This document shows, one piece after another, positions 3,393 to 36,291 of a stretch of DNA of 64,000 bases. Source of the stretch: Deltaproteobacteria bacterium (GTDB taxonomy: Bacteria; Myxococcota_A; Polyangia; Polyangiales; Ga0077539); assembly GCA_030694465.1 (NCBI GenBank), contig JAUXYJ010000103.1, positions 155,057-219,056 of the forward strand. The letters run 5' to 3'. The stretch's first letter is position 1; every line of letters begins with the position of its first letter. Below the pieces are notes generated by a model, which was not told the origin of the DNA, searched no databases, and worked only from the letters and a program-made list of their open reading frames with translations. Both the position numbers and the translations under genes were made by a program.

Positions 3393-3611
3393 ATGAACGC
3401 TCTCACTCGCGCGCCCTGCCCAACGTGTCGCACGCTCACCGTCGCGATTCGCAGTGAAAATCCTACGGCTCCGTTCTGCTCCACGCGCTGCAAGCTCGTC
3501 GATCTCGGACGCTGGCTCGACGAGTCCTACGGCGTCCCTGCCCCGCTCGCCGAGGACGAAGACGAGCTTGAGTCTCTGCCCGTCAGCAACGCGCGACGTG
3601 GTGACACGTGA
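3393..3611 (+). CDS. yacG: DNA gyrase inhibitor YacG (zinc-ribbon)
   Basis: The motif CPTC…(P)FCS.RC.L.DLG.W… followed by an acidic tail matches the E. coli YacG pattern (CPTCGK…[20 protein letters not shown]). ATG at 3393. Confidence 0.85.
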
Positions 3612-4948: not shown

Positions 4949-5050
4949 CCTGCTTTGCGTGGCATTTTGCAACGTTTTGTAGGTCAAGCCAAATGCGACA
5001 CGAAGATGCCTTCGCGAAACATCGCGTGGTACCGTCACCGGATCTACGCA

Positions 5051-6211: not shown

Positions 6212-6271
6212 GACTGCGACACTCCCACCAGGGGGGGAAGTGACCTGTCCAGCCCACCCGTGGCGGACGCG

Positions 6272-9200
6272 CTAGCGCGCAGAACGACGACGGCGTCGCA
6301 GCGTGAGCACCATGGCGCCGAGCGCCCAGAGCCCCATCTCAGTGGCTCGCAGCGGCGTGCGGGTACGCGCTACACGACAGCCGCAACCACCGCCGCCGAC
6401 CTGCACAGGGCCGCCGTCTGCGCTGCCATCCATGCCTCCGTCAGAAATCGATCCGTCTGACAAAACGCTGCCATCCGTCAGTTCTCCTCCATCGCCAACG
6501 CCCGCGTCCGTCACGCGCGGGGCGCACACGATGGTCGGGCTTGAGCTCACGCGACGCTGCCCAAACGGCAGCGGCGTGCGCCAGTTGCCCGTGTTGCTGT
6601 TGTCATGCCGAAACGTGGGCCACTGCACGTTGCCATCGGTGCGGCCCTGCGTGTGCCACGCGTAGAGCCAGCCGTTGCGCGTGGGCACCACCATCTCGAG
6701 TGTGCCGTCGCCATCGAGGTCCCCGAGCGCGGGGGCTGCGATCAGCCACTGGCCTGTGAATTTAGGAAACCCCGGCGCTTGCACACCGCACGCATCGACG
6801 GCGTGAACATAGTAGCCACCTGTGCCGAGAATGACCTCGGGGTACGCGTCCCCCGAGACGTCAGCGACCACGGGATTGACCAAGAACGTGTAGTCCTCGA
6901 TCACCTTCGGAAAGCCCGCGAGGGGGTTGCCTTCGCGCGCGTTCCACGCGCCCACGAGGTGATTGAAGTAGCCGGCTTCGCCACCACTTGCGCCGTTGAG
7001 CAGGTTCGCGTTTGCACCCGAAGCGATGAAGGCCAGCTCCCCAGAGTTTTGCAAATCAGCGAACGTGGGCACACCAAACGCGGGGATAAATGGCGCACGC
7101 ATGCGGTCATCGCTGCGCGATCCGTAGGTGATGTTGTCCATCAAAGCCAAGCGGTTGATTGTCGAAGGCATGCGAGGCTGCACGTTGCGCTGTGTGGGGC
7201 GCACGACCATCAGATCTGGGTTGGCGTTGCCCACGACCGCGAGCTCATCAAGACCGTCTCCGTCGACGTCACCGATCGCCGGAGACATCATGATCCCGGT
7301 GCCCACGATCGGGAGAATATCCACCGAAGTCACAGGGATCGGCCAGCCCGAATGCACAGGTCCGCCCGCGTGTCGCGTGCCATCGCCGTGCACAACGAAG
7401 ATGGGCGAGATGTCTCCGCTGGTGTTCGCGATGCGCTCGTTGGTGACCACCACGAGGTCGGGGATCGCGTCGGCATCCATGCGCGCCACACCGACGCTGC
7501 CAAAGATACGATTTCGCTCGGTGCCAGGCTCCACCGTGTAGTGCATATCCACAGGAAATCCCGGGTGATTTGCAGCCGTAAGCGAGTCGATCGCGTAGAG
7601 GTTTCCGTCAAACGCGCCGAAGACAATCTCGGGACGGCCGTTGCCATCGAGGTCCACGATCACCGGCGACGCCGCGATGCCGCGATCGAGCACACGCGTG
7701 GGCGAAGTGTCCGCGCTCAGCACGTCCGGGAGTGTCCGCGGAAACCCGTGCCCATACGCGCTCCCGTCATGATTAAACACGTACACAGTGCCCGCGTAGC
7801 TCGTCACGATGATCTCTGGCTGGGGGTCATCGTCGATGTTCGCGATCGCCGGTGTACCCAGCACGGCTTCGCGCAAGGTCGCAGGATCGAGGCGCCCCGC
7901 GGTGCCCGCTTGGTAGCCAGGGCTCAACCGATAGTCCACCACGCGGCCGTTGACTTGCTGCACAGCATCGAAGCCACGCTGCACGCCCAAACGCGCCGGA
8001 AACCCTGGGATTTCTGAGCCATTTGCGCTCAACGCGTGGAGCAATCCGTCGCTCGTCGCCACGATCACTTCGCCGCGACCGTCTCCGTTGAGGTCCGCGA
8101 TCCTCGGCGAGCTCTCACCGCTGCCACGCAAATCCACCGGAAATCCCGGCAGCAACGTGCTGTCCCGGTGCACATAAAACGCCTTGCGAAACTCCCCACG
8201 GACGTCCCCAGCGCTGCCGCCGTAGTGCGCCACTGCGCGCACACGCACGGTGATCGTGAAGCGATTTTCGCGCTCACCTGCGTTGTCCACCATGAGCGTA
8301 GACACATCGAGCGTCGCGAGCGATCCATCCACAGGGGCGCTGACGTTGTTGCGTGTGACCAGCGTCTGCCATGCGCTGTCTGCGGGCTCAACCCCTCGCG
8401 CCCACTCCACAACGTAGTCGTAGTTGCTCGCACGGCGCGCGCTGATGTGTCCGTCGATCTGCAGCGTGGGCGTGCGATCGGGGTAGATCACGGTGAACCA
8501 TCGCGGGCTGGTCACGTCGACTTCGGGCGGGATTTTTCCGTCTCGAATCGCTTCGAGCATGTTGCGCGTGTTGGGCCGACCGTAGCCAAATCGTTGATCC
8601 CAGCCTGGCAGCGACGGGTAGTACCGTCGGTTAAACATCGGGTGCGACGCTTGCGATTCGGGGACGTTAATGTCGTCCACCGTGGTGACCATCAGCTGCC
8701 GCGCTTCTTCGGCGCTCAACGCCGGCGTGAGCCCGCGCTGTTGTGCGTACGAGTACACTAGGCCCGCGATCCCTGACGATTGCCCCACGGCTTCGGACGA
8801 GCACGCGTTGCCCGCGACGGACAACATGAGCTGCGCGCCGTAGTTCGTGCAGTTGTTAAACGCCAAAAAAGTGGTCGAGGTCTCAAGCGTCCGGTTGCCT
8901 CGCACCGCGTGCACATAGAGCACGTGGTTGGTCGTCCCGGGCATGTTGTGATGTCGGCTGTTTTCATCCGCGGCACTCGCCACGACGAGCACATTGTTGC
9001 GATACGCGTAGTCCACCGAGTCCATCGCGAACGCGCTGTTGTTAAGCGTCCCGAGAGCCTCTTGAATCACGCGGACCCTGCGATTTTGCCCGTAGTCTAG
9101 GTCCGTCGCGTACACCACGGCTTGGGCAAAGTTGTTCACGTCTGTGACAAACGAGTCGCCCACACGCATGGGGATGTATTGGCACTCGGGGCATGCGCCG

Positions 9201-9946
9201 ATGTTACCGATGCCGTCGTTGGCGGTCGCGGTGCTGTCGTTGGCCTCGCCTGTGCCATGCCCATAGCGCGTGTCGTCGTACGGGTCGTTGTCATCGTGCA
9301 TAAAATCCCAGCCGGAGATGTCATCGACGTGCCCATTGCGGTCGTCATCGACGCCGTCTGAGAACACACGGATCAAGTCTCCTGCGTCGAGGATCCCGTT
9401 GCGGTTAGGGTCGTTGTTTGCGCCCATCGCGTCGCGACACATGCCCACCGGATGAGGCAGCGCGGTCCCGCACGGCACGCGTGGGTCGTTGGCCCAATCG
9501 CGTACGTCAATGCGCCCGTTGCCGTCCGAGTCGTACATCGCAAACGAGGTGCCATCGGCGCGCTGTGGAAGCGGCGTTTCACCCAGGTTAATTGCAGCCT
9601 GAAACTGAATCGAGCGCTCGTCCCACTCGATCCCAGAGTCCAGCACGGCGATCAAGACTCTTGGGTCTCCAAGAGACAATCCCCACGCGCGGTCCACGTT
9701 GTTTCCTGCGCCGATCGCGGTCTCTTCAGTGCGAAACCCCGCAAGCGCTTGGTTGCGTGCGGGCATCCACGACCAGTGGTGATACTGACGCGGATAGTCG
9801 GGATCGTTGGGCCACTGCGTCGGATCTGCTGCTTGTTCTCGCGTCAAATTCGCTGGAAATGGCCAAGCCATCACGCCCATCGGCGTGATCACAAGTGCCG
9901 CCGCGGTCAACGCCGCGAGTCTTCGAGTGCGTGGGATTGCTTTCAT
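6272..9946 (-). CDS. secreted subtilisin-like S8 peptidase fused to FG-GAP/integrin-alpha-like repeats, with MYXO-CTERM sorting signal
   Basis: Signal peptide after ATG at 9946 (an alternative GTG lies at 9958). S8 motifs are present: Asp in VLDSGIEWD, His in YGHGTGEAN, Ser region GQSSGIAG. It has multiple D-x-D/N-G-D-G repeats (DLNGDGRGEVIVATSDG, DLDGNGRPEIVFGAFDGNLYAI, DVDGDGLDELAV). The C-terminus GCGC-RVARTRT…TM…RRRRRSAR matches MYXO-CTERM. Confidence 0.8.
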   Translation of the reverse strand: MKAIPRTRRLAALTAAALVITPMGVMAWPFPANLTREQAADPTQWPNDPDYPRQYHHWSWMPARNQALAGFRTEETAIGAGNNVDRAWGLSLGDPRVLIAVLDSGIEWDERSIQFQAAINLGETPLPQRADGTSFAMYDSDGNGRIDVRDWANDPRVPCGTALPHPVGMCRDAMGANNDPNRNGILDAGDLIRVFSDGVDDDRNGHVDDISGWDFMHDDNDPYDDTRYGHGTGEANDSTATANDGIGNIGACPECQYIPMRVGDSFVTDVNNFAQAVVYATDLDYGQNRRVRVIQEALGTLNNSAFAMDSVDYAYRNNVLVVASAADENSRHHNMPGTTNHVLYVHAVRGNRTLETSTTFLAFNNCTNYGAQLMLSVAGNACSSEAVGQSSGIAGLVYSYAQQRGLTPALSAEEARQLMVTTVDDINVPESQASHPMFNRRYYPSLPGWDQRFGYGRPNTRNMLEAIRDGKIPPEVDVTSPRWFTVIYPDRTPTLQIDGHISARRASNYDYVVEWARGVEPADSAWQTLVTRNNVSAPVDGSLATLDVSTLMVDNAGERENRFTITVRVRAVAHYGGSAGDVRGEFRKAFYVHRDSTLLPGFPVDLRGSGESSPRIADLNGDGRGEVIVATSDGLLHALSANGSEIPGFPARLGVQRGFDAVQQVNGRVVDYRLSPGYQAGTAGRLDPATLREAVLGTPAIANIDDDPQPEIIVTSYAGTVYVFNHDGSAYGHGFPRTLPDVLSADTSPTRVLDRGIAASPVIVDLDGNGRPEIVFGAFDGNLYAIDSLTAANHPGFPVDMHYTVEPGTERNRIFGSVGVARMDADAIPDLVVVTNERIANTSGDISPIFVVHGDGTRHAGGPVHSGWPIPVTSVDILPIVGTGIMMSPAIGDVDGDGLDELAVVGNANPDLMVVRPTQRNVQPRMPSTINRLALMDNITYGSRSDDRMRAPFIPAFGVPTFADLQNSGELAFIASGANANLLNGASGGEAGYFNHLVGAWNAREGNPLAGFPKVIEDYTFLVNPVVADVSGDAYPEVILGTGGYYVHAVDACGVQAPGFPKFTGQWLIAAPALGDLDGDGTLEMVVPTRNGWLYAWHTQGRTDGNVQWPTFRHDNSNTGNWRTPLPFGQRRVSSSPTIVCAPRVTDAGVGDGGELTDGSVLSDGSISDGGMDGSADGGPVQVGGGGCGCRVARTRTPLRATEMGLWALGAMVLTLRRRRRSAR

Positions 9947-10024
9947 CGGTGTTCTCACTTTGCGGGCCTGAGAGCCTACGGCACTCTACACATGGCGCGC
10001 TCGGCGATGTGTAGCGATGATCCG

Positions 10025-10423
10025 CTAGGGTGTATGCGACGCGAGACGCCACGCGTTTCCGATGCGCCGGATACACTGTTCGAGTGCAATTTCGCTCAGT
10101 GATTCTTGCTGAATCAACGGCAGCAGCGCACGCCAAGCCTCGGCCAACGTACGGACCGCTTCCGAGCGTCGCTGAAGACTCACCGGGAGCGAGCTCTCAC
10201 ATCGCCCCGCCCGCACCGCGAACCGCAAGCGATCTCGCACAATCTCTCGACGCAACGCCGCTTCAAAGCGCCGCTGCGCGTCACGCTCGCTGCCCACCGG
10301 GCCATCGTCTACCGCGCACGCAACAAGCGCACGGGCGGCCTCACGAGGGCGCTCAATGGGCTGCAATTCTGCAGGGCTACGCTGACATGCACACAACAGC
10401 ACCGCGAGCGCGACGGCCCTCAC
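10025..10423 (-). CDS. small hypothetical protein (possible secreted/lipoprotein)
   Basis: The GTG at 10423 overlaps the stop of the upstream gene (GTGA), suggesting translational coupling. The N-terminus is hydrophobic (AVALAVLLCAC). No known domain. Confidence 0.3.
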   Translation of the reverse strand: MRAVALAVLLCACQRSPAELQPIERPREAARALVACAVDDGPVGSERDAQRRFEAALRREIVRDRLRFAVRAGRCESSLPVSLQRRSEAVRTLAEAWRALLPLIQQESLSEIALEQCIRRIGNAWRLASHTP

Positions 10424-11808
10424 GGCCCCGCGTCCTCGGGGTGCATCACGCGCTCGGCGAGCTCGGGTCGACGCCCCATCGTGAGCCATCCCGCGAGCTC
10501 TTGTCGCTGAGCCTCTGCGTGTGCAACCACACTCCCCAACGCCGCGGACGCGAGGGCGGCGCGCAGGGGATCTCGGGAGTCTGCGCTCAGCCGTCGCGCG
10601 GCTTCAATGCCGGCCTCGGGGGCGACCGCGGCAGCCGTAGTCATAGCGATTCTGCAGGCCAACAGCGCATCGTCGGTCCACGACTCGCGCGCGTCGATTA
10701 ACGCATCGCAGGGTTGGCCCACGCCGCCGGTCTCAAACGCAAAGCTCGACGCGAGCGCTACGTCGCCCCACGCGCGGGCTCTGAGAAGGGCACGTCGGAC
10801 CGCGTTGCGCGCGAGGCCCGCGTTGCCTTGGGCCACGGCAGCACGCGCCTGCAGCATCAGCACGGCGGGGTCATCACCGCTCGCTGCGACCGCTGCCGCG
10901 AGGTCTTGTACGACGCCCTCGTGTACGCTCCCTCCGAGGCTCGCGCGCTGGAGCTGAGCCCGTGCCGCGAGGGGCACCGCGCCGTCGGGCCACGCGCGCA
11001 CAGCGCTGTCGACAAGGGCGAGCGCCGCAGCGCCATTCGATGCTGGATTTAGTGCGGCCGAAGCGTGCGCGGACTGCACCATCATCGCGCCCGAGATCGC
11101 CTCTGCAGTCATCGCGCGTGGCAGCGCATCGCTCACCGCGACGACGGTCCCATCGACGAGGTCAAGCGCGTGCCCCGCGACGACCACCACATAGCGCCCA
11201 AGCACGCCCGTCGGATCCGGCGGAACATCTCCACGCACGCTCCGCGTTCGCTGCGCAAACGTCACAGCGAGCCCTCGCGAGCGGCAGGCAACCGAGAGGG
11301 CGCGAGCGAGATCGAGCGACGAAAACCGCGCGCCCGCGGATGCAAGCGCGACCCCAAGCGCCTGCGTCTCACGCGAGGGTCCGACCTGGTCTGGGGTGAC
11401 AACGACGTGATGATTTGCAGTACGAATGCGTGACGCGAGCGCATCAAAGATCGCGCGAGCCCGTGCGAGAGAGCCGCTGGGAAGCGTCTGCGGGGCGAGG
11501 GCAGCGAGCGAGGGTGCCTCTGCGAGCGGCGCGGGCACATCGGCCACAGTGCTCGTGCGTCCCTCGTGTGAATCACGCGCGGTTGTGGCCGAGCGACTCG
11601 CGCGGAGCTTGGTCACGCTGAAGACAACCACCGCGGCCGCAGCGATGATCGCGAACGTGATCAGCACCCGCACGCGCTTCTCGCGCTTGCTCAACGGCGT
11701 GCGTTTGCTCTCGCGGACCTCCATAAGCCCGGTCGTTCGTAGGCACGCGGGACAGCGGATGGCCTCGTCGTCGGTCTGGGCTTGGCAATACGAACACTCA
11801 AGGGCCAT
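10420..11808 (-). CDS. zinc-ribbon / single-TM membrane protein with large Ala-rich extracytoplasmic domain
   Basis: N-terminal C-x2-C-x13-C-x2-C (CSYCQAQTDDEAIRCPAC), then a TM helix (VLITFAIIAAAAVVVFSV). There is a possible transglutaminase-like core (…ACRSRGLAVTF… GHALDLVDG), very tentative. Confidence 0.5.
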   Translation of the reverse strand: MALECSYCQAQTDDEAIRCPACLRTTGLMEVRESKRTPLSKREKRVRVLITFAIIAAAAVVVFSVTKLRASRSATTARDSHEGRTSTVADVPAPLAEAPSLAALAPQTLPSGSLARARAIFDALASRIRTANHHVVVTPDQVGPSRETQALGVALASAGARFSSLDLARALSVACRSRGLAVTFAQRTRSVRGDVPPDPTGVLGRYVVVVAGHALDLVDGTVVAVSDALPRAMTAEAISGAMMVQSAHASAALNPASNGAAALALVDSAVRAWPDGAVPLAARAQLQRASLGGSVHEGVVQDLAAAVAASGDDPAVLMLQARAAVAQGNAGLARNAVRRALLRARAWGDVALASSFAFETGGVGQPCDALIDARESWTDDALLACRIAMTTAAAVAPEAGIEAARRLSADSRDPLRAALASAALGSVVAHAEAQRQELAGWLTMGRRPELAERVMHPEDAGP

Positions 11809-11894
11809 AGGATTCTCTAAGGGCGTGTGTATCGCATGACGCCCGCGGGCGCAGCCCTCACCCGAGGGGTCCCAATGATACGATCTTCGGGGTA

Positions 11895-13040
11895 ATGGCT
11901 ACTCTTCGATCGAGCGCACGCGCGAGGCTGCTCTTGGGGGCCACCCTGATGGTGGGCTGCAGCGCAAACCCGTCGATGGACGCGTCTATGCCCGACAGTG
12001 GCAACGCAGAGACCGGCAGCAGCCCCGAAGACGTGAGAGACACTGGGCCTGACGTCACCCCGGCGCGCTGCTCAATACGGCCAGCGCCCATGGCATTTCG
12101 GCGCAATTTACCGTCGATTCAGCCCACGGACGCGACGCTGCGGATGAATCATTTGCAGGCCAAAGCCACACACAACAGCTACCATCTGCGCCCCGCCGTC
12201 GACCTCCCCGAGTGGGACTACGAGCACGCCCCGCTCCGCACACAGCTCATGGAGCAAGGGGTCAGGAGCGTCGAGTTAGACATCCACTACGACAGCGCGT
12301 GCAGGCAATTTGCCGTCTATCACGTCGCATCCCTCGACGAGCGCACCACGTGCAGGACGCTCTTTGAGTGCCTCCTTGCGCTGCGAGATTTCTCACAAGC
12401 CAACCCGGGGCATCACCCGATCTTTGTGCACATCGAGCCCAAAGACCCGCCATTGCTCATGGATGGCACGAGGTTCACTGCGCTCGAGGGCGAGATCACC
12501 GCGGTGTTTTCGCGCGATTGGATCATCACGCCGGACGAAGTGCGCGGGGCCTCTGCGACATTGCGCGAGGCGATTTCGACCCGAGGATGGCCCTCGCTCG
12601 AGACCACGCGCGGTCGCATTCTGTTCTATCTCGACGACCGCGCCGCGCCCAGAGAGACCTACTCGTCCGGGGGGCAACATCTCAACGGCAGGCTCATGTT
12701 TGTCGACAGCGCGCCCACCGATCCGGTCGCAGCCATCGCTGTGCTCAATGACCCGATCGCCGACGCCGAAGCGATCACGCGTGCGCTCGCCGCGGGGATG
12801 ATCGTGCGCACACGCGCCGACTCGGATCCTGCCATGGCCCGTAGCAACGGTGCCCCTCGCCTTGCGCGCGCGTTGGCCTCGGGCGCACAGCTTGTGAGCA
12901 CTGATTTTCCTGCGATGACCATGGGTACAGACTACGTAGCAAACATCCCCGAGGGCACTCCCTCGCGCTGCTCACCGGTCACCGCACCCGCGATGTGCAC
13001 CCCTGGCATGATCGAAGACCCCGCGCGACTCGCCCGCTGA
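11895..13040 (+). CDS. lipoprotein, PLC-like phosphodiesterase (PI-PLC X-domain-like)
   Basis: Lipobox LMVGCSA. It contains an HNSYH motif and a DIHYD…FAVYHV TIM-barrel phosphodiesterase-like region. The assignment is from motif memory only. Confidence 0.55.
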   Translation: MATLRSSARARLLLGATLMVGCSANPSMDASMPDSGNAETGSSPEDVRDTGPDVTPARCSIRPAPMAFRRNLPSIQPTDATLRMNHLQAKATHNSYHLRPAVDLPEWDYEHAPLRTQLMEQGVRSVELDIHYDSACRQFAVYHVASLDERTTCRTLFECLLALRDFSQANPGHHPIFVHIEPKDPPLLMDGTRFTALEGEITAVFSRDWIITPDEVRGASATLREAISTRGWPSLETTRGRILFYLDDRAAPRETYSSGGQHLNGRLMFVDSAPTDPVAAIAVLNDPIADAEAITRALAAGMIVRTRADSDPAMARSNGAPRLARALASGAQLVSTDFPAMTMGTDYVANIPEGTPSRCSPVTAPAMCTPGMIEDPARLAR

Positions 13041-13090
13041 AATCGCAGCCTCGCTTGTGCCACGCGTGCGACGTCTCTTAGTATGTTCGC

Positions 13091-15415
13091 ATGTCGTCTC
13101 GCCCTGCACGGATCCCATGGGCCGCGTTTTTTTCAGGACAAACGCGAGCTCCCCGAGGGCTCTTGCTCTCGCTCGTGATGCTCTCTGCGGGCTGCGCTGC
13201 AGGCGAAGAGGGCGTGGGCCAGCAGGTCGAAGGCATCGCGATCGCGGGTCCGTGGGTGGCGCCCGCGACGACGCGCGACATCGCCCGCACACAGCGCGTC
13301 TCGGTGGTGGATCCACCCACGGTGGCGCCGGCGGGACGCTGCACATCGAGCAACCCGTTTGCGTGCTCGTGCACACACCCAGCGTGCACACCCGCGCACC
13401 CTGGGACCAACGATTTGCGTGCGTATTTGCTGCGTAGATTCACGCGCATTCGCAACGGTGGGTCATACTGTTGCAGACAAAACAGCGCTGCCTTGGGCTC
13501 TCTCTCGGTGCACGCGATCGGTCGCGCGATGGACCTGATGGTGCCCATGACCGGCGGCGACGCAGACAACACGATCGGCGATGAGGTGGCCAACTGGCTC
13601 GTCGAGAACGCGAACTTCATCGGGATTCAGCGCGTCGTCTGGGATCGCGCATACTGGAACGGCGAGCGAGGTTTCGGGCTCTTGAGCTCTTCGTCGCTGC
13701 CCCACACCGACCACCTCCACGTTGAGCTAAGCATCGCGGGTGGGGCACGGCAGACTCCGTTCTTTACCTCGGGCGCCTCGATGGGCTCGGGCACATGCAC
13801 ACCACGCTGCAACGGCACCGATCTTATCGCAGCCAACTGCACCATCACACACTGCGGACTCGTCGGCGCGCCGTGTCTCGCGGGCCCTCCGCCTTCATGC
13901 GGAACCCCGCCTCCCCCAGAGCCCCCCGAGGCGGTCTTGGTCCCCGGCGCAGCGCTCCCCGCGGTCGCGCGATTGGGCGCAGTGGGTCGCGTCCGTTGGC
14001 TCACACCCCAGCGCATGTTTGACACGCGCACCGCTGCCGAGAGCACGCGCTTGACCCGCGGAGGCGGCGCAACGAGCGGCCCCGTCCTCGCAGCTCAAGG
14101 GGCGGTCTATCGCAACTGGACCGGCGCTGGTTTGCCCGCGGACGCGAGCACCGTGTGGATAAACAACACCGCGGTGCCCAGCACCCTGGGCGGGTTCTTG
14201 TCCGTCATCGGCACGGGACAAGCGCGCCCCGAGACCTCGAATCTTAACTGGGCTCCCATGCGCGTGGCTGCCAACGCCGCGGTGGTTTCGCTTGGAGATT
14301 CACAGGGAATCTCTTTCGCTCCCAACACAGACGTCGAGCTCATCAGCGATGTGTACGCCGCGTTTGCTCCCACCGGAGACAACCTCACCGCAGCGGGCCC
14401 CCTCCGTGTGTACGACACACGGTCCGCGTCGATGCCGCTGCTACCCAATACGCCACGCGCCATCGATGTCCGCGCACCCGCGACAGCCACGGGCGTCATC
14501 GCCAACATCGCCGTCATCGCTGGCGCCGCCGACGGGTTTGTCGTGCTTTATCCCTGCGGAATGCCCGTCCCTGGCACAAGCTCCGTGAACTTCACCGCGC
14601 AACGTGTTGTGTCCAACAGCGTGATGGTGCAGCTCGGGACCGATCGGCAAATCTGCGCACGCTCGACCTCCGAAGTGGGGCTCATCGTGGACGTCTCGGG
14701 CTACCTCTCGCCCACTGGGCTGTCCGCGTATCAGCCGCTGCGCCCCGTGCGAATGCTTGACACGCGCTCGGGGACGACCCGCTATCGCAACCGCCTCGCG
14801 GCGCGACAGACTCTTGAACTTCCCATCCAGAGCATGCCCGGAATGCCTGCCAATGTGCACGCCGTGGTCGCCAACATCACCGCGGTCAACACCGCGGACA
14901 ACGGGTTTGTCACTGCGTATCCATGCGGCGGAGGCGCGACGGCCCCAGGCACCTCGTCGCTCAATTACGGCGCGAGCGACGTCGTCAGTGGGCTCGTCGT
15001 CTCGCCAGTTACCAACGGATCACTCTGCCTCTTCTCTTTGGTCCGCACCGATCTGATTGTGGATTTGCAGGGTGTCTGGACCGGCGCAATGCCCGCGCCT
15101 CCCACCATGATGATGATGGGCGAAGACCCCGGAGATCCTCCCGATCTCAGCAATGATGGCGGCCTCGACGATGCCTCTGGGCCCACGCCCATGGACGCTG
15201 CGGGCGCAGACACGGGCACTGCCGAAGACGCATCAAGCCCTCCATTGCGAGACGCCTCGCCCGACGCTCGCCGCGGAAGCGAGCCCCTCGAAGCGCCCTC
15301 TGGCTGTGGCTGCCGCACAGTGAATCACGCGGGCGATCGATCGTGCTCGCTCTTGGCCTTCGGCGCGTTTGCCACGCTGATGGCAGCCCAACGACGCCGG
15401 CGACGTACGCACTAG
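13091..15415 (+). CDS. secreted LAS-superfamily (peptidase M15-like) metallopeptidase-domain protein with three ~110-aa YPCG repeats and MYXO-CTERM
   Basis: Signal peptide. SVHAIGRAMDL fits the S-x-H-x2-G-x-A-x-D zinc-ligand motif of VanY/M15 peptidases, and HTDHLHVEL provides a further His pair. There are three tandem repeats containing V..DTR…ANI(A/T)…GF(V/L)..YPCG…TSS.N(F/Y)…LIVD..GY. The C-terminus GCGC-RTVNHAGDRSCS…TM…RRRRRTH is MYXO-CTERM. Confidence 0.7.
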   Translation: MSSRPARIPWAAFFSGQTRAPRGLLLSLVMLSAGCAAGEEGVGQQVEGIAIAGPWVAPATTRDIARTQRVSVVDPPTVAPAGRCTSSNPFACSCTHPACTPAHPGTNDLRAYLLRRFTRIRNGGSYCCRQNSAALGSLSVHAIGRAMDLMVPMTGGDADNTIGDEVANWLVENANFIGIQRVVWDRAYWNGERGFGLLSSSSLPHTDHLHVELSIAGGARQTPFFTSGASMGSGTCTPRCNGTDLIAANCTITHCGLVGAPCLAGPPPSCGTPPPPEPPEAVLVPGAALPAVARLGAVGRVRWLTPQRMFDTRTAAESTRLTRGGGATSGPVLAAQGAVYRNWTGAGLPADASTVWINNTAVPSTLGGFLSVIGTGQARPETSNLNWAPMRVAANAAVVSLGDSQGISFAPNTDVELISDVYAAFAPTGDNLTAAGPLRVYDTRSASMPLLPNTPRAIDVRAPATATGVIANIAVIAGAADGFVVLYPCGMPVPGTSSVNFTAQRVVSNSVMVQLGTDRQICARSTSEVGLIVDVSGYLSPTGLSAYQPLRPVRMLDTRSGTTRYRNRLAARQTLELPIQSMPGMPANVHAVVANITAVNTADNGFVTAYPCGGGATAPGTSSLNYGASDVVSGLVVSPVTNGSLCLFSLVRTDLIVDLQGVWTGAMPAPPTMMMMGEDPGDPPDLSNDGGLDDASGPTPMDAAGADTGTAEDASSPPLRDASPDARRGSEPLEAPSGCGCRTVNHAGDRSCSLLAFGAFATLMAAQRRRRRTH

Positions 15416-15531
15416 ATCGCGCTTTGCGTGGTCTCGGCAGAGACTCTGATCGCGCGGAGTTCAGCGATTAGAGCGCGTGGACACACTACAACCACGAAGT
15501 TTCTGCGCGTCTGTGTCATGGTGGCGACGTC

Positions 15532-16020
15532 ATGGACGACGACGCACGCAACGAGACGATCCGCCGCGGACTCAGCACGCATGTGCCTGAAATCGCGCAA
15601 GGTATCGTGGTCATTCACAAGATTGTCTCTGGACAAAATCGCAGCAAAATCGCTGTCCGATCGACCAAGCCCACGGTGGATCCGGTCAAGACGTGCGCTG
15701 CCCATGGCGCCGCGGCGATCCACGCTCTCCAGCAGCAGCTCGGTTGCACGATGGACCTCGTCGCCTGGGGTGCCAACTGGTCCGACAACATCCGCAGCTC
15801 ACTTCTTCCGCTCAAATGCACAGGGATTGACCCCGGCGAGTTCGAAGGAGACCCAGTGAAAATCGAGGGGCCCTACATGCAATACGACGAGGGCCACCAG
15901 CTCAGCGAGCGTGAAGCGATGGTCGCGACCATCTTGTCCCTCGCGCGCACACTCACCGGCGAAGAGCTGATCTTCTCGACTCCCGTGCGGTGGCTCCTCG
16001 CGCCTGCCCCAAGAGGCTGA
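15532..16020 (+). CDS. hypothetical protein
   Basis: 162-aa ORF in a locally lower-GC (~55%) stretch. No recognisable domain. A competing antisense ORF (15412..15723) is less plausible. Confidence 0.3.
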   Translation: MDDDARNETIRRGLSTHVPEIAQGIVVIHKIVSGQNRSKIAVRSTKPTVDPVKTCAAHGAAAIHALQQQLGCTMDLVAWGANWSDNIRSSLLPLKCTGIDPGEFEGDPVKIEGPYMQYDEGHQLSEREAMVATILSLARTLTGEELIFSTPVRWLLAPAPRG

Positions 16021-16087
16021 GCGCAATGAGCTCGTACGCTCGCTTTTTTCTCTGCATTTTTGCGCTCTAACCGCGGTCTCGCCTGCA

Positions 16088-18427
16088 GTGTCGTCCCACG
16101 CGCTACCCTCTACGCCGACCTCGTTGGCAGCCCCCCGCAGCCAGCGCCCCTGCCCTGTGTGTCGCGCCCCGGTAGACGTCCTCCGCGCACCCTACGTCGC
16201 GCATCGCGCCGGACACTTTGCCTATTATTGCTCGTTCGCTTGTTTTGAGCAGCGTGCGGACGTGGAGGGATCTCTTCGCGGCTCGACGGCCACAAGCGAT
16301 CCGCTCGCGCGGCCACAGCGCGAGCCCGAGGACCTCGTCGAAGAGCCCCTGGTCCCTGATGATTTGCAGCTCGAAGCACCGAGCCCTGTCGTCGAAGACA
16401 GCGCGCCGTTGCTGTCACAGCCGCTCCCCGTGCTTGTGTCTTTTGTGGGCGAGCCCACGCTCGATGAGCTGCGGATCATGCTCGGAATTCGCAGCGTCGT
16501 AGAGTCGCAGAGCGAAGGCCCCGCGCAGATCCCTGATCTCGTCGAGCGCCGCGCCGAGCCGCTGATCCTCGCGCCCATCACGTGGGTCCCCCTCGGGGCC
16601 GCGGCACTTTGCACGGCGATCACGCTGATCGCGATGCTTAGTTCGTCCGGGATTTCGCTAGCATTTTCGTCAATCGCCGCGCTCGGCGCCCTCACGATCG
16701 CGGGCCGCACGCTCTGGAGTCTGCGCGTGCTGGCACATCCCTTGTGGTGGAGCACTCCCTTCGCCGCCTCGCTGCTCATGATCGCGCGCGCGTCGAGTGT
16801 TCACAGCGCTGGAACATCGCTGGCGCTCGCAGCCCTCTGCGCGAGCGTCTTGCCCCTGCGCGCGTGGTTTGTGCATCGCACAATGCACAGCGCGTTGGGG
16901 GCGCTCGATGCCCAGCAGCGATGGCTTCCGCTGACTGCACGCGTGATCCGCGGCGCCGCGTCTGAGCCGACGATCCTAGAGAGCAAGCAGGTCCGTGCAG
17001 GCGAAGAGGTTCTTGTCGACGCAGGCGAGCGCGTCCCGACCGATGGCGTTGTGCGCGAAGGCGAAGCGACCCTTGAGACGGGCTCTCACGCACGCACCGT
17101 GAGCGTCGGCCATTCGGTCCTCGCCGGAGCGTATGTGCGCACGGGCTCACTGCAATTGCTCGCGACGCGCGCGGGCGAAGACGCAGCCATCATGCGCGCG
17201 CGGGCCATTTTTGATGGGCGCGAAGAGCGTGGTGCGCTCCCGGCGACAGCGCGGAGCCTGCCCACCCTCGCGGTCATAACCGTGGCAATGGCCACCGCGA
17301 TCGCGCTCTTTGTGGCACCGCAAGACCCTCTGGCCACCTTGGCGCTCACGCTCGTCGCGCTGCCCTTGGGGCCACTGCGTGTGCTCTCTCGCGCCCCGTG
17401 GATGCACGCCGCAGCGCAATCTCTCTCGCGCGGAACGGTCTTTCGCGACCTCCCAGCCCTCACCCTCGCCTCGCGCGTCGGGATGCTCGTGCTCTCGGTC
17501 CGCGCCACGCTCACACGCGGAGTGTTCGAGCTGTGCGAGATCGTCTCGATGGGTCATTGGACCGAGAAAGAGCTCCTCGCCCTCGCCGCGGGCGCAGAGC
17601 AACAAGCCCCCGAGCACCCCATCGCGACGGCGATCCTTGACGCCGCGCGGGCCAGACAATTGCGGCCTGATCCTGTGCGCAGACCCATCCCGATGCCAGG
17701 CAAGGGCATCGTGGCGGCGACGTCGCTGGGTGCGCCTCTCGTGGTGGGCTCCCGTGCGCTCTTGATCGCAGAGGGCATCGCGGTGGCGCCAGGCGAAGAG
17801 CTCGCGCGCGCGATCGAAGCCCACGGGCGGCACGCGGTGTTTATCGCGGTGAGCGGTCGCCTCGAGGGGATCTTAGGTCTCGAAGATCGTCCACGTGAAG
17901 ACGCACGAAACACTGTCCAAACGCTGATAGATGCGGGCCTCGCGGTCGCCCTCGTCGGCGGAGAGAGCGCGAACACACTCGACGCCCTGGCCCTCTCGCT
18001 CGACGTCGCGCAGGTCCGCGCCGAGGTGAGTCCCGAGGACCGCCCCGCACAAATTCGCGCATTGGGAGAGCTCTCCGGCTACGTCGCCGTCGCAGGGCAT
18101 CCCGCGCTCGATGACCTCGCGCTCGGCGCCGCCGATGTCTCAATCGGGCTCGCCTCCGCAGGTGGGACCGGCGCAGAGTGCACCATCGCGCTCTCAGGCG
18201 ACGCGCTCCGAGACGCCTCCGACGCGCTCTTGCTCGCGCGGCGTGCACGCAAAGCCAGCCAGTCCATGCTCTGGACCCTGATGATCTCGGGTGTCTTCGG
18301 AGCCCTCGGCCGCACGCTAGGGTTCTCGCTCGCCATCGCCACACTCCTCGCGCTCGTCGTGCCCACCGTGGGCCTGTGGCTGGCCGGAAGATACACACTG
18401 CAAGATCAACCGAGTGAAGGCACCTGA
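16088..18427 (+). CDS. P1B-type (heavy-metal) ATPase homologue with degenerate catalytic motifs and N-terminal TRASH-like Cys motif
   Basis: N-terminal CPVC-x19-C-x3-C metal-binding-like motif. Topology and the conserved HP motif (PEHPIATAIL, cf. SEHPLA) match CopA-like pumps. The other catalytic motifs are degenerate: DKTGTLT is replaced by SVRATLTRG (no phosphorylatable Asp), TM6 CPC by LPL, GDGINDAPAL by AGHPALDDLAL, and TGES by ETGS. GTG start at 16088. Confidence 0.7.
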   Translation: MSSHALPSTPTSLAAPRSQRPCPVCRAPVDVLRAPYVAHRAGHFAYYCSFACFEQRADVEGSLRGSTATSDPLARPQREPEDLVEEPLVPDDLQLEAPSPVVEDSAPLLSQPLPVLVSFVGEPTLDELRIMLGIRSVVESQSEGPAQIPDLVERRAEPLILAPITWVPLGAAALCTAITLIAMLSSSGISLAFSSIAALGALTIAGRTLWSLRVLAHPLWWSTPFAASLLMIARASSVHSAGTSLALAALCASVLPLRAWFVHRTMHSALGALDAQQRWLPLTARVIRGAASEPTILESKQVRAGEEVLVDAGERVPTDGVVREGEATLETGSHARTVSVGHSVLAGAYVRTGSLQLLATRAGEDAAIMRARAIFDGREERGALPATARSLPTLAVITVAMATAIALFVAPQDPLATLALTLVALPLGPLRVLSRAPWMHAAAQSLSRGTVFRDLPALTLASRVGMLVLSVRATLTRGVFELCEIVSMGHWTEKELLALAAGAEQQAPEHPIATAILDAARARQLRPDPVRRPIPMPGKGIVAATSLGAPLVVGSRALLIAEGIAVAPGEELARAIEAHGRHAVFIAVSGRLEGILGLEDRPREDARNTVQTLIDAGLAVALVGGESANTLDALALSLDVAQVRAEVSPEDRPAQIRALGELSGYVAVAGHPALDDLALGAADVSIGLASAGGTGAECTIALSGDALRDASDALLLARRARKASQSMLWTLMISGVFGALGRTLGFSLAIATLLALVVPTVGLWLAGRYTLQDQPSEGT

Positions 18428-18476
18428 GGGCTGCTTAGGGTCGCAGCGATCGATTGGTGCTATACTTCGCCGCGTT

Positions 18477-19034
18477 ATGCTCGACGACGTTCTTCAGGAC
18501 CTGCAATCTTCAATTCACAAAGCCCACGAGTCACTGCGCACGCAGCTTGGGCGCCTTCGCACCGGGCGCGCGACCGCGTCGATGCTTGATTCGGTTCGCG
18601 TGGACTATTACGGCACGCCAACACCGATCAGCCAAATGGCCAACGTCCAGGTGCCCGAGCCGCGCTTAATCACGGTCAAAGCGTGGGAAAAAAACCAGGG
18701 CAAAGCGATCGACAAGGCCATCCGTGAGTCGGGCCTTGGGCTCAACCCACAGCTCGACGGTGACCTCGTCCGGATCCCCATCCCCGCGCTCACCGAAGAG
18801 CGCCGCAAAGACCTCGCCAAGCAAGCGCGCAAGGTCGGCGAAGAGTGCAAGATCGCCGTGCGTGAGGCGCGCCGCAACGCCAAAGAGCTCGTTGACACGC
18901 TTGTCAAGGACGGCGATGTCGGCGAAGACGAAGGCGAGCTCGCCTGGAAAAAGGCTGAAGAGCTCGTCGTGCACGGCAACAAGCAGGTCGACGAGATCGT
19001 CGCCGGCAAAGAGAAAGACATCATGACCGTGTGA
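18477..19034 (+). CDS. frr: ribosome recycling factor
   Basis: Full-length RRF-like sequence (MLDDVLQDLQ…RTGRA..SMLD.V.VDYYGT.TPI.Q.A.V.VPE.R…EIVAGKEKDIM). Confidence 0.95.
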   Translation: MLDDVLQDLQSSIHKAHESLRTQLGRLRTGRATASMLDSVRVDYYGTPTPISQMANVQVPEPRLITVKAWEKNQGKAIDKAIRESGLGLNPQLDGDLVRIPIPALTEERRKDLAKQARKVGEECKIAVREARRNAKELVDTLVKDGDVGEDEGELAWKKAEELVVHGNKQVDEIVAGKEKDIMTV

Positions 19035-19072
19035 AGTGCCTTGAGGACATCACACGGTGATAGCTTCTCTGT

Positions 19073-20290
19073 GTGGCGTCCTTCTCTGCAGCAACACGTG
19101 AGCTCGTCCTTAAGCTCGTCTATTACGGTCCTGGCCTTGGCGGCAAGACGACCTCTCTCAAAGCGCTGCACGCGGCCGTGCGGCCCGAGCACCGCGGGCG
19201 CATGATCTCGCTCGCGACTCCGGTCGATCGCACGCTGTACTTTGACTTCTTGCCGCTGCGCTTGCCCAGCATCGGCGACGTGCAGCTGCGCTTGCAGCTC
19301 TTTACCGTCCCGGGCCAAGTGTACTTTAACGCCACACGCAAGCTCGTCCTCACGGGCGCTGACGGCGTGATCTTTGTCGCAGACTCACAGCGCGCGCGGT
19401 CCGAGGCAAACACCGAAGCGCTAGACAATTTGCGGGACAATCTCCGCGAGCTCAACCGAAACTTCGACGAGCTCCCGTTGGTGTTTTCGTACAACAAGCG
19501 CGACCTGGACGACGTGTTTGACATGGCGCAGCTCGACCAAGCGCTCAACCCCCGCAAGGTGCCCTCGTTTGCTACGTCGGCGACCCGCGGCGAGGGCGTG
19601 TTTGAGCCCCTGGATGCCGTCGTGCGCGAGGCCCTCGCGGATCTCGTGCGTCGCAAGACCCTCCCGCCCGATGTCCTCTTGCCCCAAGACCGCACCGTGG
19701 CCGAGCGGCTCGCGAGCGTCCAGGCAGAGGTCCCCAGCCGCAGCGTAGAGCCTGCCCAGGTCGTCGCTGGGGCAGCGCCACGGACGCCTCCGCCGGTGCC
19801 CATCCCAAGCGAAATCGAGGCCGCGCTGAGCCAAGCTACCGAGACCGTCGAGCGCCTGGTGTCCCCAGGCCAGAGAGCGCATGAGCCTCGCAACACGGTC
19901 ACGATGCCCGCGCTTCAGGTGGGGCCCACGAGCGATCGCAACCGGCGCTCGCTCACGCTGTCCTCGCTGTTTGACACAGACGAGCAAGAGGCTGTCAGGA
20001 CCATCGAAGACGCGCTCGACGAGGGGCTGCATCCACGTGCACTTTTGCTGCTCGAAGCGCTGTTGGTGAGGGTCTTAGATCGCAGCGCACGGATGGTCGG
20101 GCGCACCGAGGGGCACCACGAGGCGACCGCGTGGATGCTCGGGATTTCGCCCGAGCGCTACGCACGCACACGCACCGCCGCACAGCGCGCGCGACGCGGA
20201 ACCGCGGCCACACGACGCGAGGCTCTCGAGGCCTACGTGCTCGCGTGCAGCGCGCAGATCGCCGTCGCCGCGATGAGCGAGCGTGGCTAA
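19073..20290 (+). CDS. MglA-family Ras-like GTPase with ~210-aa C-terminal extension
   Basis: The N-terminal 195 aa are nearly collinear with M. xanthus MglA: LKLVYYGPGLGGKTTSL (P-loop), ISLATPVDRTLYFDFLPL (Arg-finger region conserved), TVPGQVY (catalytic Gln conserved), NKRD. GTG start 38 nt after frr. The extension is Pro/Ala-rich and then helical, with no known domain. Confidence 0.85.
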   Translation: MASFSAATRELVLKLVYYGPGLGGKTTSLKALHAAVRPEHRGRMISLATPVDRTLYFDFLPLRLPSIGDVQLRLQLFTVPGQVYFNATRKLVLTGADGVIFVADSQRARSEANTEALDNLRDNLRELNRNFDELPLVFSYNKRDLDDVFDMAQLDQALNPRKVPSFATSATRGEGVFEPLDAVVREALADLVRRKTLPPDVLLPQDRTVAERLASVQAEVPSRSVEPAQVVAGAAPRTPPPVPIPSEIEAALSQATETVERLVSPGQRAHEPRNTVTMPALQVGPTSDRNRRSLTLSSLFDTDEQEAVRTIEDALDEGLHPRALLLLEALLVRVLDRSARMVGRTEGHHEATAWMLGISPERYARTRTAAQRARRGTAATRREALEAYVLACSAQIAVAAMSERG

Positions 20291-24787: not shown

Positions 24788-25519
24788 ATGACCGAGCGCG
24801 CCCCTGTGCAAGAGCCCTCTTCGCGATGGATCTATCACCTCGTGACCCCCTCGCGGTGGGCCCTCGGAGATGACCCGTACACGCCCGACTCGATCGCGCA
24901 TGAGGGCTACATCCATGGCTCTTTTCGCAGTGAATTACGCGAGAGCGCCAGGCTCTACTTTGCCCCCGAGAGCGCTCCCATTGTGCTGCAGCTCGACCCT
25001 GCCGTGCTGGCCGCGCATGGGATCGAGATCGTGTACGCCGACACCCCCCGCGGACCGATGCCACACCTGCACGCGCCGCTGCCACGCGCTGCGGTTCATC
25101 GCACGCTCACGCTCGACGAGAGTGACCAGAGCGACGACACACGCTCTGCGCTGGACACACTCTTGGCCAAGGTCCACGCGTTTAATCTCGCGCGCGATTG
25201 GCAGCAGTTTCACTCACCCAAGAACCTCGCGATGGCGCTGACCATCGAGGCCAGCGAGCTCGCCGAGCCCTACCGCTGGGACACCGACGCGCAGGCCTGG
25301 GAGCGCGCCCTGAGCGAGGCTGGACGCGCGCACCTGCAAGACGAAATGGCTGATATTTTGCTGCTATTACTCTCTCTCGCGGACTACAACAAGCTGGACC
25401 TGCTCGGCGCGACCGAGGGCAAGCTCGCGCGCAATGAGTCGCGCTATCCCGCTGCGCAATCCCGAGGACGCGCGGACAAGTACACCGCGTACCAAGCGCG
25501 CAAACCCGACGAGCCCTAA
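24788..25519 (+). CDS. DUF952 – MazG-like nucleotide pyrophosphohydrolase fusion protein
   Basis: The N-terminus WIYHLVTPSRW…PDSIAHEGYIHGSF is DUF952-like. The C-terminus is MazG/dCTPase-like (…EASELAEPYRW…ADILLLLLSLADYNKLDLLGATEGKLARNESRYP). Confidence 0.7.
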   Translation: MTERAPVQEPSSRWIYHLVTPSRWALGDDPYTPDSIAHEGYIHGSFRSELRESARLYFAPESAPIVLQLDPAVLAAHGIEIVYADTPRGPMPHLHAPLPRAAVHRTLTLDESDQSDDTRSALDTLLAKVHAFNLARDWQQFHSPKNLAMALTIEASELAEPYRWDTDAQAWERALSEAGRAHLQDEMADILLLLLSLADYNKLDLLGATEGKLARNESRYPAAQSRGRADKYTAYQARKPDEP

Positions 25520-32393: not shown

Positions 32394-32897
32394 CTAACCC
32401 GGCGACGTCGCCGGGTTACTCACTGCCATGGCGTCTACCCGCGCGACGAGCGCATCGAGCCGGTCCACCAGCGCACGTTGCGTGTCAATTTGCTGCTGTG
32501 CGAGCGCTTGCGCGGTGTCTTCTCGGGCTCGCTGCGCTGCGCTCGGGGGCTCGAGCGCGCGCGCGGCCATCGCGGGCCCGAGGGTCATCAATGCGCTCGC
32601 GATGGCCTTGCCCGCGGTGGTCACCGCGAACACCCGCGCATAGCCCACCGAGAGACACGTGGTGGTGAACACCAAGGCGTCCCAGAACGAGTTGACCTCG
32701 GGGTTTGCGTCGCGCTCGGCGACATAGAACAGCCACGCGCTCCCGAGGCTCGTCGCGATCACCGCGTCCAACGGATCTTGGGCGATCACTGCGCGAAGCT
32801 CATCGCGCGCCGCGCCGTACGCGCCGCCTAGGTCTTGCGACCCAAGCACGCGGCCAAGCGCTGAGAGCGCGAGGGTCTCGGCGGCGTTTGTGCTCAT
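32394..32897 (-). CDS. 2-TM ion-channel-like protein with K+-channel-type pore loop (non-canonical filter)
   Basis: TM1 (LDAVIATSLGSAWLFYVA), then NSFWDALVFTTTCLSVGYA (cf. K+-channel sfwWavvTmTTVGYGD), then TM2 (VFAVTTAGKAIASALMTLGPAMAA), then a helical C-terminal tail. Its ATG overlaps the flotillin stop (ATGA). Confidence 0.55.
   Translation of the reverse strand: MSTNAAETLALSALGRVLGSQDLGGAYGAARDELRAVIAQDPLDAVIATSLGSAWLFYVAERDANPEVNSFWDALVFTTTCLSVGYARVFAVTTAGKAIASALMTLGPAMAARALEPPSAAQRAREDTAQALAQQQIDTQRALVDRLDALVARVDAMAVSNPATSPG
32396..32417. repeat. GC palindrome copy 2 (AACCCGGCGACGTCGCCGGGTT, perfect 22-nt palindrome) forming the last 7 codons of the channel-like gene
   Basis: Direct reading. 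On the minus strand it encodes …NPATSPG followed immediately by TAG. Confidence 0.8.
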
Positions 32898-35083: not shown

Positions 35084-35200
35084 GGTGTCCCGACCTCCCG
35101 ATGTTTGTGACCAAGTTGTGCTGTGAATTTGCTGACCAACGCGACCATCGCGCGGACACCAGAGACACAGCTACAGGCTCGGCACAGACTGCGATACTTG

Positions 35201-35941: not shown

Positions 35942-36291
35942 CAAGAACGGCCCTTGCGTGCCACACGCTCTCGCCCAAAAAGACGAGATGCGCGGCCGCG
36001 AAGTGAGAGAATGCGGGTGGGAAACCTCCGCAAAAAAGTGAGCGCCACGATGGGTGCAGATCCGCGTTGGCTCCGTCAACGGCAGATCGGTCACGCATCA
36101 TCCGATTTTGCGCGGCTGTCACCGAAGGCTTTCTGGCGAAAAGTTGCCTTGGAGCGCGGTTCTGTAGCTTAGCTCGGCCAGATTCGGTCACCTGGACGCG
36201 CCCCACGCGGCGCCGCGGGTGTCCCCCTCTGCCACGAGAGCGGGTTGTTTTGTAGTCCAACACAGCCGCCTCGTGTCATCCGACGGAGCGA

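Follow-up and report, generated by a model that had tools for sequence, protein, structure and literature searches.

Among bacterial Ras-like polarity switches the model is MglA, a protein of polar localisation whose GTP hydrolysis is stimulated by MglB; to our knowledge nearly all of what has been learned about it has come from Myxococcus. Described here is a longer relative of MglA, one in which an MglA-type GTPase (G) domain is followed, within the same polypeptide, by a C-terminal domain of HEPN-like predicted fold. The gene in question is an open reading frame (ORF) of 405 codons plus stop, with a GTG start, found at 19073–20290 on the plus strand of what we call 'the window', i.e., a whole stretch of 64,000 nucleotides from a Polyangia metagenome-assembled genome (MAG; Deltaproteobacteria bacterium, GCA_030694465.1, contig JAUXYJ010000103.1, positions 155,057 to 219,056). 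Coordinates are positions within the window unless a locus from another genome is named.

Within the MglA family, 'Group 1' is defined by an arginine lying next to the G2 threonine along with a TVPGQ G3 motif (Wuichet & Sogaard-Andersen 2014, PMC4316618). Its members are single-domain proteins of 150–240 amino acids (aa), with mglB found within four genes of most, not all, of them (PMC4316618). As sequences of more than 240 aa, i.e., 39 of the 488 of the MglA subclade, were dropped from that survey, the long family described here was not analysed there. In the M. xanthus MglA–MglB complex, residues F56, F57 and F59 of MglA strand β2 contact the roadblock core of MglB, and Lys181 and Lys185 of MglA helix α5 bind the acidic C-terminal helix of MglB (PMC6785124).

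MglA relatives which are both longer and 'orphan' have been described as well. The 'Group II MglA2' homologs of Fremgen et al. (2010; PMC3000849), with Myxococcus, Geobacter and Fibrobacter as listed sources, are 225–327 aa in length, have an extra C-terminal region and lack an MglB partner. SofG is a characterised orphan MglA paralog which retains the intrinsic arginine and which is not stimulated by MglB. The long family resembles SofG and Group II in that its members are orphan MglA paralogs exceeding 195 aa, which carry an added region and lack a partner MglB, but differs from Group II in its total lengths (368–803 aa), in possessing a C-terminal domain of its own, and in being of Polyangia wherever its source is named.

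The G domain consists of residues 1–195 (19073–19657, plus strand). Over residues 5–192 its alignment to M. xanthus MglA (6hjh/6h17/5ymx; E ~4e-54) is gapless, as is that to T. thermophilus MglA (3t12; E 5e-51), with MglA the best structural match and with strand β1 beginning, as in MglA, at residue 10. M. xanthus MglA is matched at 49% identity and canonical Polyangia MglA at 54%, and Pfam and NCBIfam searches using the full protein return weak Ras/Arf/small_GTP matches. The G1 to G5 motifs of a Ras-like G domain are present. Conservation was judged from a family alignment of 110 sequences, from which all of the invariance counts and column identities given here are taken. In the G1 motif, or P-loop, G19-P-G-L-G-G-K-T-T27 (19127–19153), residues G19, G21, L22, G24, K25 and T26 are invariant. 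So too, in 110 of 110, is D52-R53-T54 of switch I (19226–19234), which places an intrinsic arginine finger beside the G2 threonine. Also invariant are T78-V-P-G-Q82 (G3; 19304–19318), which supplies the catalytic glutamine, and N141, K142 and D144 of the G4 motif N141-K-R-D144 (19493–19504). Both of the defining features of Group 1, R53-T54 and T78–Q82, are found in all 110 family members. Judged from its residues, the G domain is therefore of Group-1 MglA type with a complete catalytic set (P-loop, Arg53, Thr54, TVPGQ and NKRD), and a GTP/GDP switch based upon it would run on MglA's own catalytic machinery. At 405 aa the protein as a whole nonetheless lies outside of the Group-1 size range.

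This architecture is not peculiar to one contig. A sequence search of 5.8 billion proteins for full-length homologs yielded over 100 cluster representatives, each about 400 aa long, with 98–100% query coverage and 40–70% identity, including proteins from Minicystis rosea, Byssovorax and Polyangiaceae MAGs. When one genome per GTDB species was scanned, a relative was found in 314 genomes, with neighbourhoods compared for the best 80 loci. The architecture is present, that is, in at least 314 species genomes, and every lineage-named locus among those best 80 is of Polyangia. Among the complete genomes carrying the family are those of Sorangium cellulosum So ce56, Sorangium So ce726 and Minicystis rosea, with the So ce56 ortholog (CAN92572.1 / WP_012235045.1 / UniProt A9G230) going by the names 'gliding motility protein' and 'GTPase domain-containing protein'.

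The C-terminal domain, in turn, appears to be found nowhere else. A HMMER profile of the last ~115 residues, run against 1.84 billion representatives, matched 225 clusters, with the domain at the extreme C-terminus every time. A check for the G domain was made on 152 C-domain representatives, i.e., 150 listed from the profile scan plus the hits of an earlier tail-only search. Among these, the representatives of at least 350 aa have a G domain at residues 1–194, except for four: P0172 and P0252, which are evident frameshifts, P0161, which is a probable 5'-truncated call, and P0257. The C-terminal domain therefore is specific to this fusion. Other architectures carrying the tail were looked for, and the exceptions lacking a G domain are mostly explained by frameshift or truncation; a word-indexed search with the tail alone gave four fragments.

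In a neighbour-joining tree the long proteins are monophyletic, sitting on a long stem apart from canonical MglAs. Within that tree's set of sequences they are 50–53% identical to canonical MglAs, versus 82% between the canonical MglAs of Polyangia and Myxococcus. The 405-aa protein thus shows neither the high identity to canonical MglAs nor the grouping with them that would be expected of a canonical ortholog. Relatives furthermore can carry both. At five loci (L049, L067, L070, L071 and L079), canonical mglB (160 aa) and mglA (195–205 aa; its product 81% identical to M. xanthus MglA) are found on the opposite strand, some 3 kb upstream of the long gene, and mglB alone is seen about 3 kb away at two more (L048 and L060). 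The separate clade, together with coexistence with canonical mglBA in relatives, indicates that the long protein is, by these comparisons, a true paralog rather than canonical MglA.

Two further observations concern these loci. The mglB-mglA pair of L067 is found at 639–1741 of that locus, on the minus strand, and the mglBA-bearing subset includes a Sandaracinus MAG. At L007, which is among the closest relatives of the window locus, a third MglA-like gene (3135–3884, plus strand; about 195 aa from its likely start, MAFIHR) lies 6 kb upstream of the long paralog, with identities of 59% to M. xanthus MglA and of 46% to the long family.

The boundaries of the gene are well supported. Because of an in-frame TAG at 19061–19063, that is, 12 nt upstream of the ORF, a longer N-terminus of the 405-aa protein is impossible, and homologs share its N-terminal residues (MAS...). 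SofG, which interacts with the bactofilin BacP, is said to have an N-terminal extension preceding its G domain; given the stop at 19061, such an extension cannot be present here, and in this the protein would be set apart from SofG. An independent Logan assembly, of run SRR13727538, encodes an identical 405-aa product, with the order of genes (P-type-ATPase-like gene, frr, GTPase gene, DUF1697, hydrolase) as in the window. The NCBI record of the protein is MDP3279019.1, 'MAG: GTPase domain-containing protein [Deltaproteobacteria bacterium]'.

It might still be supposed that the 'long' protein is an artefact, i.e., a canonical mglA whose stop or start had been called wrongly, that reads through into an adjoining gene, or that owes its length to chimeric assembly, and some family members do carry the database name 'gliding motility protein MglA'. 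We view this as having a negligible probability, and indeed as ruled out. The same 405-aa product comes from two independent assemblies, and the architecture is kept in the complete genomes noted above. Identity to canonical MglA is just 49–54%, versus the 82% seen among canonical MglAs, and canonical mglBA is present in the same loci of relatives. Lastly, G+C at third codon positions (GC3) is 0.80 across the whole ORF, versus an overall window G+C of 0.65. The original prediction, which had been made from the window sequence, proposed an MglA-paralogous GTPase with residues 1–195 near-collinear with MglA, with the intrinsic arginine and catalytic glutamine in place, with no N-terminal extension and with a C-terminal extension of 210 aa. 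All of this has held up, the paralogy and the extension in light of the structure matches and homologs, and the catalytic residues to the full extent of the Group-1 set. The circumstance which that prediction saw as fatal to it, that is, this simply being canonical mglA with an extension not conserved in relatives, is excluded, as the extension occurs in more than 100 full-length homologs and mglBA coexists with it in the loci of seven relatives.

Following the G domain, three regions can be distinguished, with mean column identities which fall and then rise again: 0.81 for the G domain (residues 1–195), 0.50 for a post-G segment (196–225), 0.27 for a linker (226–294) and 0.67 for the C-terminal domain (295–405). 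The conserved post-G segment (about 35 aa) as annotated spans residues 196–233 (19658–19771, plus strand), with a helix at 207–215 and a short strand at 228–230. Its A210, R212 and P221 are nearly invariant, and its predicted local distance difference test (pLDDT) values are 77–88 in the full-length model. Residues 234–294 (19772–19954, plus strand) then form a variable, moderately proline- and alanine-rich linker (P+A of 0.26–0.28) that is largely disordered, with pLDDT below 50 at 234–244 and 259–290. Residues 196–294 taken together, i.e., post-G segment plus linker, span 61–161 aa across the alignment, and the linker ranges from about 60 to more than 400 aa over the wider family.

The C-terminal helical domain (about 110 aa) consists of residues 295–405 (19955–20287, plus strand). 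E312, R333 and Y363 are invariant there, and R309, R362, R367 and R374 are nearly so, with R374 found at the end of helix 3. When modelled alone this domain yields a pLDDT of 92.3 and a predicted template-modelling score (pTM) of 0.86, with four long helices and a short helix between the second and third. A Foldseek search with that model placed 2hsb first (E 0.02, TM 0.64), ahead of 1wol and 2q00; 1o3u ranked sixth, and three HEPN entries are among the top four. HEPN domains are four-helix up-down bundles built from a pair of α-hairpins, in most cases with an insert separating helix 2 from helix 3, having a conserved acidic residue in helix 2 and an Rx4-6H motif at the end of helix 3 (PMC3710099). 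The predicted structure has the two α-hairpins as well as the insert. What the domain lacks is the rest of the motif. Across the alignment no conserved histidine is found downstream of R374 (the sequence being RRGTAATRR in the window and R(G/S)(D/G)G... in the other clade), and invariant R333 occupies the position in helix 2 of the conserved HEPN acid.

Searches at the sequence level return nothing comparable. The window protein's C-terminal domain has no Pfam match at E values up to 10 and no NCBIfam match. Across the tails of 32 family members, Pfam gives one weak AadA_C match only (E 0.075) and no HEPN family, and a PDB sequence-profile search with the tail gave noise only (E of at least 0.67). 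Compared with described HEPN proteins (AF0298/UPF0332, 2hsb; the HEPN toxins associated with MNT; and the sacsin HEPN, 3o10), the tail is alike in its short helix between helices 2 and 3 and in the conserved arginine ending helix 3 (PMC3710099). It is unlike them in identity (9–18%, with no profile match), in having no Rx4-6H histidine, in having arginine in place of the helix-2 acid, and in being fused to a Ras-like GTPase, a combination for which the literature search turned up no description. The C-terminal domain accordingly is described here, from its modelled structure, as HEPN-like and probably non-catalytic. A fused MglB or roadblock was considered as well and rejected, the domain being all-helical and without the α/β roadblock fold. 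The extension had been predicted to be a 'unique' one, rich in proline and alanine and helical at its end. The P/A-rich linker and the helical domain are indeed there, but they are not unique, being family-wide in at least 314 species genomes.

Fusions in which a small G domain is followed by a further domain are known from elsewhere. In the Rag/Gtr GTPases and in Roco proteins, the G domain precedes a C-terminal domain that both dimerises and controls the GTPase cycle. The likeness here is in having the two in one polypeptide. The C-terminal domains of Rags, however, are roadblock folds and COR is another fold again, whereas the present tail is an all-helical HEPN-like bundle lying beyond a long disordered linker.

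How, then, might this GTPase be controlled? The prediction that no roadblock/LC7 (MglB) gene is found nearby is borne out for the window: Pfam gives no Robl_LC7 match in its ~64 plausible ORFs, and a hidden Markov model built from Polyangia MglBs has no match among its six-frame ORFs of at least 50 aa. The linkage to mglB within four genes seen with most Group-1 members is not found in the window, and at most family loci there likewise is no mglB within four genes of the long GTPase. Residues which in MglA contact MglB have nevertheless not all been lost. Positions 56, 57 and 59 are Y, F and F in 110 of 110 family members, so that the β2 hydrophobic surface is kept. Position 181, by contrast with the K181 and K185 of canonical Polyangia MglAs, is never basic (E in 54, D in 28, S in 23, Q in 4 and A in 1 of the 110), and at position 185 an acidic residue is found in 54 and a basic one in 46 of the 110, with the window protein possessing D181 and R185. 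With Y56, F57 and F59 kept and K181 lost, it therefore would be the surface for the roadblock core that has been retained and the allosteric pocket that has been lost or reversed in charge. This argues for a regulatory regime that differs from that of MglA. Set against MglA as such (M. xanthus MXAN_1925; T. thermophilus), then, what is shared is a collinear G domain, the intrinsic arginine, TVPGQ, NKRD and the β2 hydrophobics. Differing are an identity of 49–54%, a separate clade, a 210-aa tail, loss of the α5 Lys181/Lys185 pocket, absence of an adjacent mglB in the window and, in relatives, coexistence of the long paralog with canonical MglA.

The reading we favour, though by a little better than an even chance, is that the protein is an MglA-type GTP switch for which hydrolysis still depends upon a trans-acting factor, with the tethered HEPN-like domain, degenerate in its catalytic motif, being a module for dimerisation or partner binding. 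As the MglA machinery must be repositioned by a partner, hydrolysis probably still would need a trans-acting GTPase-activating protein (GAP), and the invariant β2 surface of Y56, F57 and F59 suggests a partner of roadblock type. The allosteric route via MglB's acidic C-terminal helix probably is no longer used, since no family member aligned has a basic residue at position 181. The HEPN-like domain most likely would act in dimerisation or in partner binding, i.e., for localisation or as an effector module, and a module so tethered would give the paralog a specificity distinct from that of canonical MglA, much as SofG uses extensions.

Several points weigh against this reading. Similar folds can arise convergently in small helical bundles. 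The HEPN assignment comes from predicted structure, sequence profiles having matched no HEPN family and the best Foldseek E being just 0.02, and the role in dimerisation or partner binding is taken from how HEPN domains usually behave. The full-length model has a pTM of 0.66 despite containing about 85 low-confidence residues, which hints at some defined inter-domain geometry, and the tail may dock intramolecularly on the G domain. Instead of a protein interface, E312, R333, R362, Y363, R367 and R374 could make up a catalytic or ligand-binding site. No partner conserved across the whole family was found among the best 80 loci, and a literature search found no biochemical or genetic data on any family member. 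That search also found no paper joining MglA and HEPN, and none citing the So ce56 accession numbers.

The hint of a defined geometry raises the question of an intramolecular regulator, that is, of the post-G segment and/or the C-terminal domain folding onto the switch regions or onto the charge-reversed α5/interswitch pocket, and there acting as a built-in GAP, guanine nucleotide exchange factor (GEF) or auto-inhibitor in place of MglB. The original prediction had leaned this way in suggesting that a tethered C-terminal module could stand in for a separate GAP or effector. Consistent with this are the absence of an MglB gene from the window, and from within four genes at most loci, the full-length pTM of 0.66, and a post-G segment which is conserved and confidently modelled (pLDDT 77–88) though lying outside of both domains. 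In addition, the lysine at 181 has become Glu, Asp or Ser while the tail bears invariant or nearly invariant arginines (R212, R309, R333, R362, R367 and R374). The C-terminal domain, however, consists of helices throughout and has no relation to the roadblock/longin GAPs or to other known regulators of MglA, and a linker whose length runs from about 60 to beyond 400 aa is more readily seen as a tether than as a fixed clamp. Canonical mglB, moreover, is present in the same genomes, indeed beside the long gene at seven loci, and the β2 surface for the roadblock core is invariant. We therefore consider such built-in regulation to be unlikely.

The HEPN-like fold raises a different question, which is whether the tail might instead be an effector, i.e., a ribonuclease with an alternative site or an RNA- or nucleotide-binding module, with its activity under the control of the nucleotide bound to the G domain, as in PrrC and RloC. 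NTPase–HEPN fusions, HEPN families with alternative catalytic residues, and non-catalytic RNA binders all are documented (PMC3710099), and serve as precedents. PrrC, RloC and STAND-HEPN proteins in particular share with the long family an N-terminal P-loop NTPase and a C-terminal HEPN-type domain, such that NTP state could gate the tail (PMC3710099). Those, however, are ABC or STAND NTPases with intact HEPN ribonucleases, from defence contexts, versus the small Ras-like switch, degenerate HEPN motif and housekeeping context seen here. Besides its fold, the tail does have an arginine at the motif position along with the polar set of E312, R333, R362, Y363, R367 and R374. But there is no conserved histidine, R333 replaces the helix-2 acid, and no HEPN Pfam family is matched by sequence profile. 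Neighbouring genes, too, are housekeeping or envelope genes rather than defence or toxin–antitoxin ones, and the family is vertically conserved within one class, unlike mobile HEPN toxins. A GTPase-controlled HEPN effector accordingly strikes us as quite improbable.

More speculatively, the tail might be a HEPN-derived sensor or effector that is coupled to the switch, in either of two versions, an idea to which, as a whole, we would assign only a slim likelihood. In the first, the arginine-rich C-terminal domain or the post-G helix would dock on the charge-reversed α5/interswitch pocket, with the docked tail taking over the allosteric role, in exchange and in assisting the GAP, of MglB's acidic C-terminal helix. 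In the second, the nucleotide state of the MglA-type GTPase would gate the binding of RNA or of nucleotides by the degenerate HEPN domain. If true, this second version would be the first link of a bacterial Ras-like polarity switch to a HEPN module.

Neighbouring genes were considered as possible partners. Immediately upstream is frr (18477–19034, plus strand; 185 aa by an independent gene call, with the longest ORF starting at 18414), identified by Pfam RRF (E 2.6e-58) and TIGR00496 (E 4e-53). A gap of 38 nt separates the end of frr, at 19034, from the GTPase start, as the original prediction had noted. As nothing terminator-like was found between frr and the GTPase gene, the two are likely co-transcribed. 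As a functional partner frr nonetheless was rejected, its adjacency being unique to this contig, with no frr beside the family in other loci.

At the four closest relatives (L006–L009; 66–68% identity), the GTPase gene instead follows same-strand genes for a GAPDH-PGK fusion, a Ser/Thr kinase, a 370-aa protein and a major facilitator superfamily (MFS) transporter. The fusion is a 771-aa ORF (3017–5332, plus strand, at L009; also at L006–L008) which joins the Gp_dh_N/C domains of glyceraldehyde-3-phosphate dehydrogenase to PGK. The window retains kinase, 373-aa protein and MFS genes at 608–4948, being 84%, 52% and 72% identical, respectively, to their counterparts at L009 (5546–9982), with about 14 kb separating this block from the GTPase gene. 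The intervening segment (4949–19072) looks like a rearrangement or insertion. Found within it are genes for a 1228-aa subtilase/FG-GAP protein, a PI-PLC, a 774-aa protein, a KH protein and a P-type-ATPase-like protein, plus frr. The P-type-ATPase-like gene, perhaps that of a divergent P-type ATPase, is a 779-aa ORF (16088–18427, plus strand) with only weak E1-E2 ATPase and HAD matches and a cysteine-rich N-terminus (CPVC...), and overlaps at its end with the longest frr ORF.

In a larger, Polyangiaceae clade the surroundings are different. There, a same-strand rhomboid gene lies about 50 nt upstream of the GTPase gene at 39 loci. Also conserved are a divergent block of ECF sigma factor, TPR, acyltransferase, DnaJ and HSP70 genes and, at 34 loci, a convergent gene for a secreted protein of about 560 aa. 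Downstream are a sigma54 response regulator (38 loci) and three to four prepilin-type (N_methyl) genes (34 loci). The rhomboid, sigma54 regulator and prepilin genes are possible functional partners within that clade; none of the three has a homolog in the window. The rhomboid-family protein possesses an N-terminal CxxC...CxxC motif which is zinc-ribbon-like (e.g., L004, 7107–7976; L077, 2756–3676). A partnership by analogy with GltJ is weak, since, as the GltJ paper reports, the zinc ribbon of GltJ binds MglB and the linker, not MglA. In Minicystis rosea (CP016211.1; L001, 9330–15109), the GTPase gene is followed directly, on the opposite strand, by rodA, pbp2, a 190-aa ORF, mreC and mreB. MglA connects to MreB in M. 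xanthus, but the rodA–mreB adjacency is not seen as a conserved feature of family loci.

The original prediction had also pointed to a chemosensory module with REC and DUF4388 domains, at 48901–54004, as potentially related to the GTPase. The module is real. It consists of a 540-aa response regulator with REC and DUF4388 (i.e., PATAN), a 146-aa ORF (50466–50906), an MCP-signal protein (50982–51911) and a CheA with Hpt, HATPase and CheW domains (51908–54004). PATAN proteins often are linked to MglA and MglB and to type IV pili. The suggested relationship is not supported, however: 29 kb separates the cluster from the GTPase gene, and none of the 80 loci has it in its flanks. With no synteny with the family in any of them it was rejected as a partner. 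Elsewhere in the window are a 243-aa ORF (24788–25519, plus strand) combining DUF952 with a MazG-like domain, and a gene for a 729-aa flotillin/SPFH protein adjoining one for a YqiJ/NfeD-like membrane protein (32894–36094, minus strand), which is an ordinary SPFH–NfeD pair.

Orphan long MglA paralogs already are known as a kind; what is undescribed, as far as we have searched, is this family along with its HEPN-like domain. It defines a second MglA lineage, one of Polyangia wherever the genomes listed are named, which has kept the catalytic machinery and β2 surface of MglA, has lost the pocket for the allosteric helix of MglB, and has acquired a HEPN-like domain on a tether. The length cut-off of the main phylogenomic survey left this lineage out, and database labels for it are generic only. 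To the repertoire of non-catalytic HEPN domains it would add a GTPase fusion. With orthologs present in cultured strains, i.e., Sorangium cellulosum So ce56 (A9G230) and Minicystis rosea, the family may be viewed as a natural experiment in how MglA-type switches gain new regulators and outputs.

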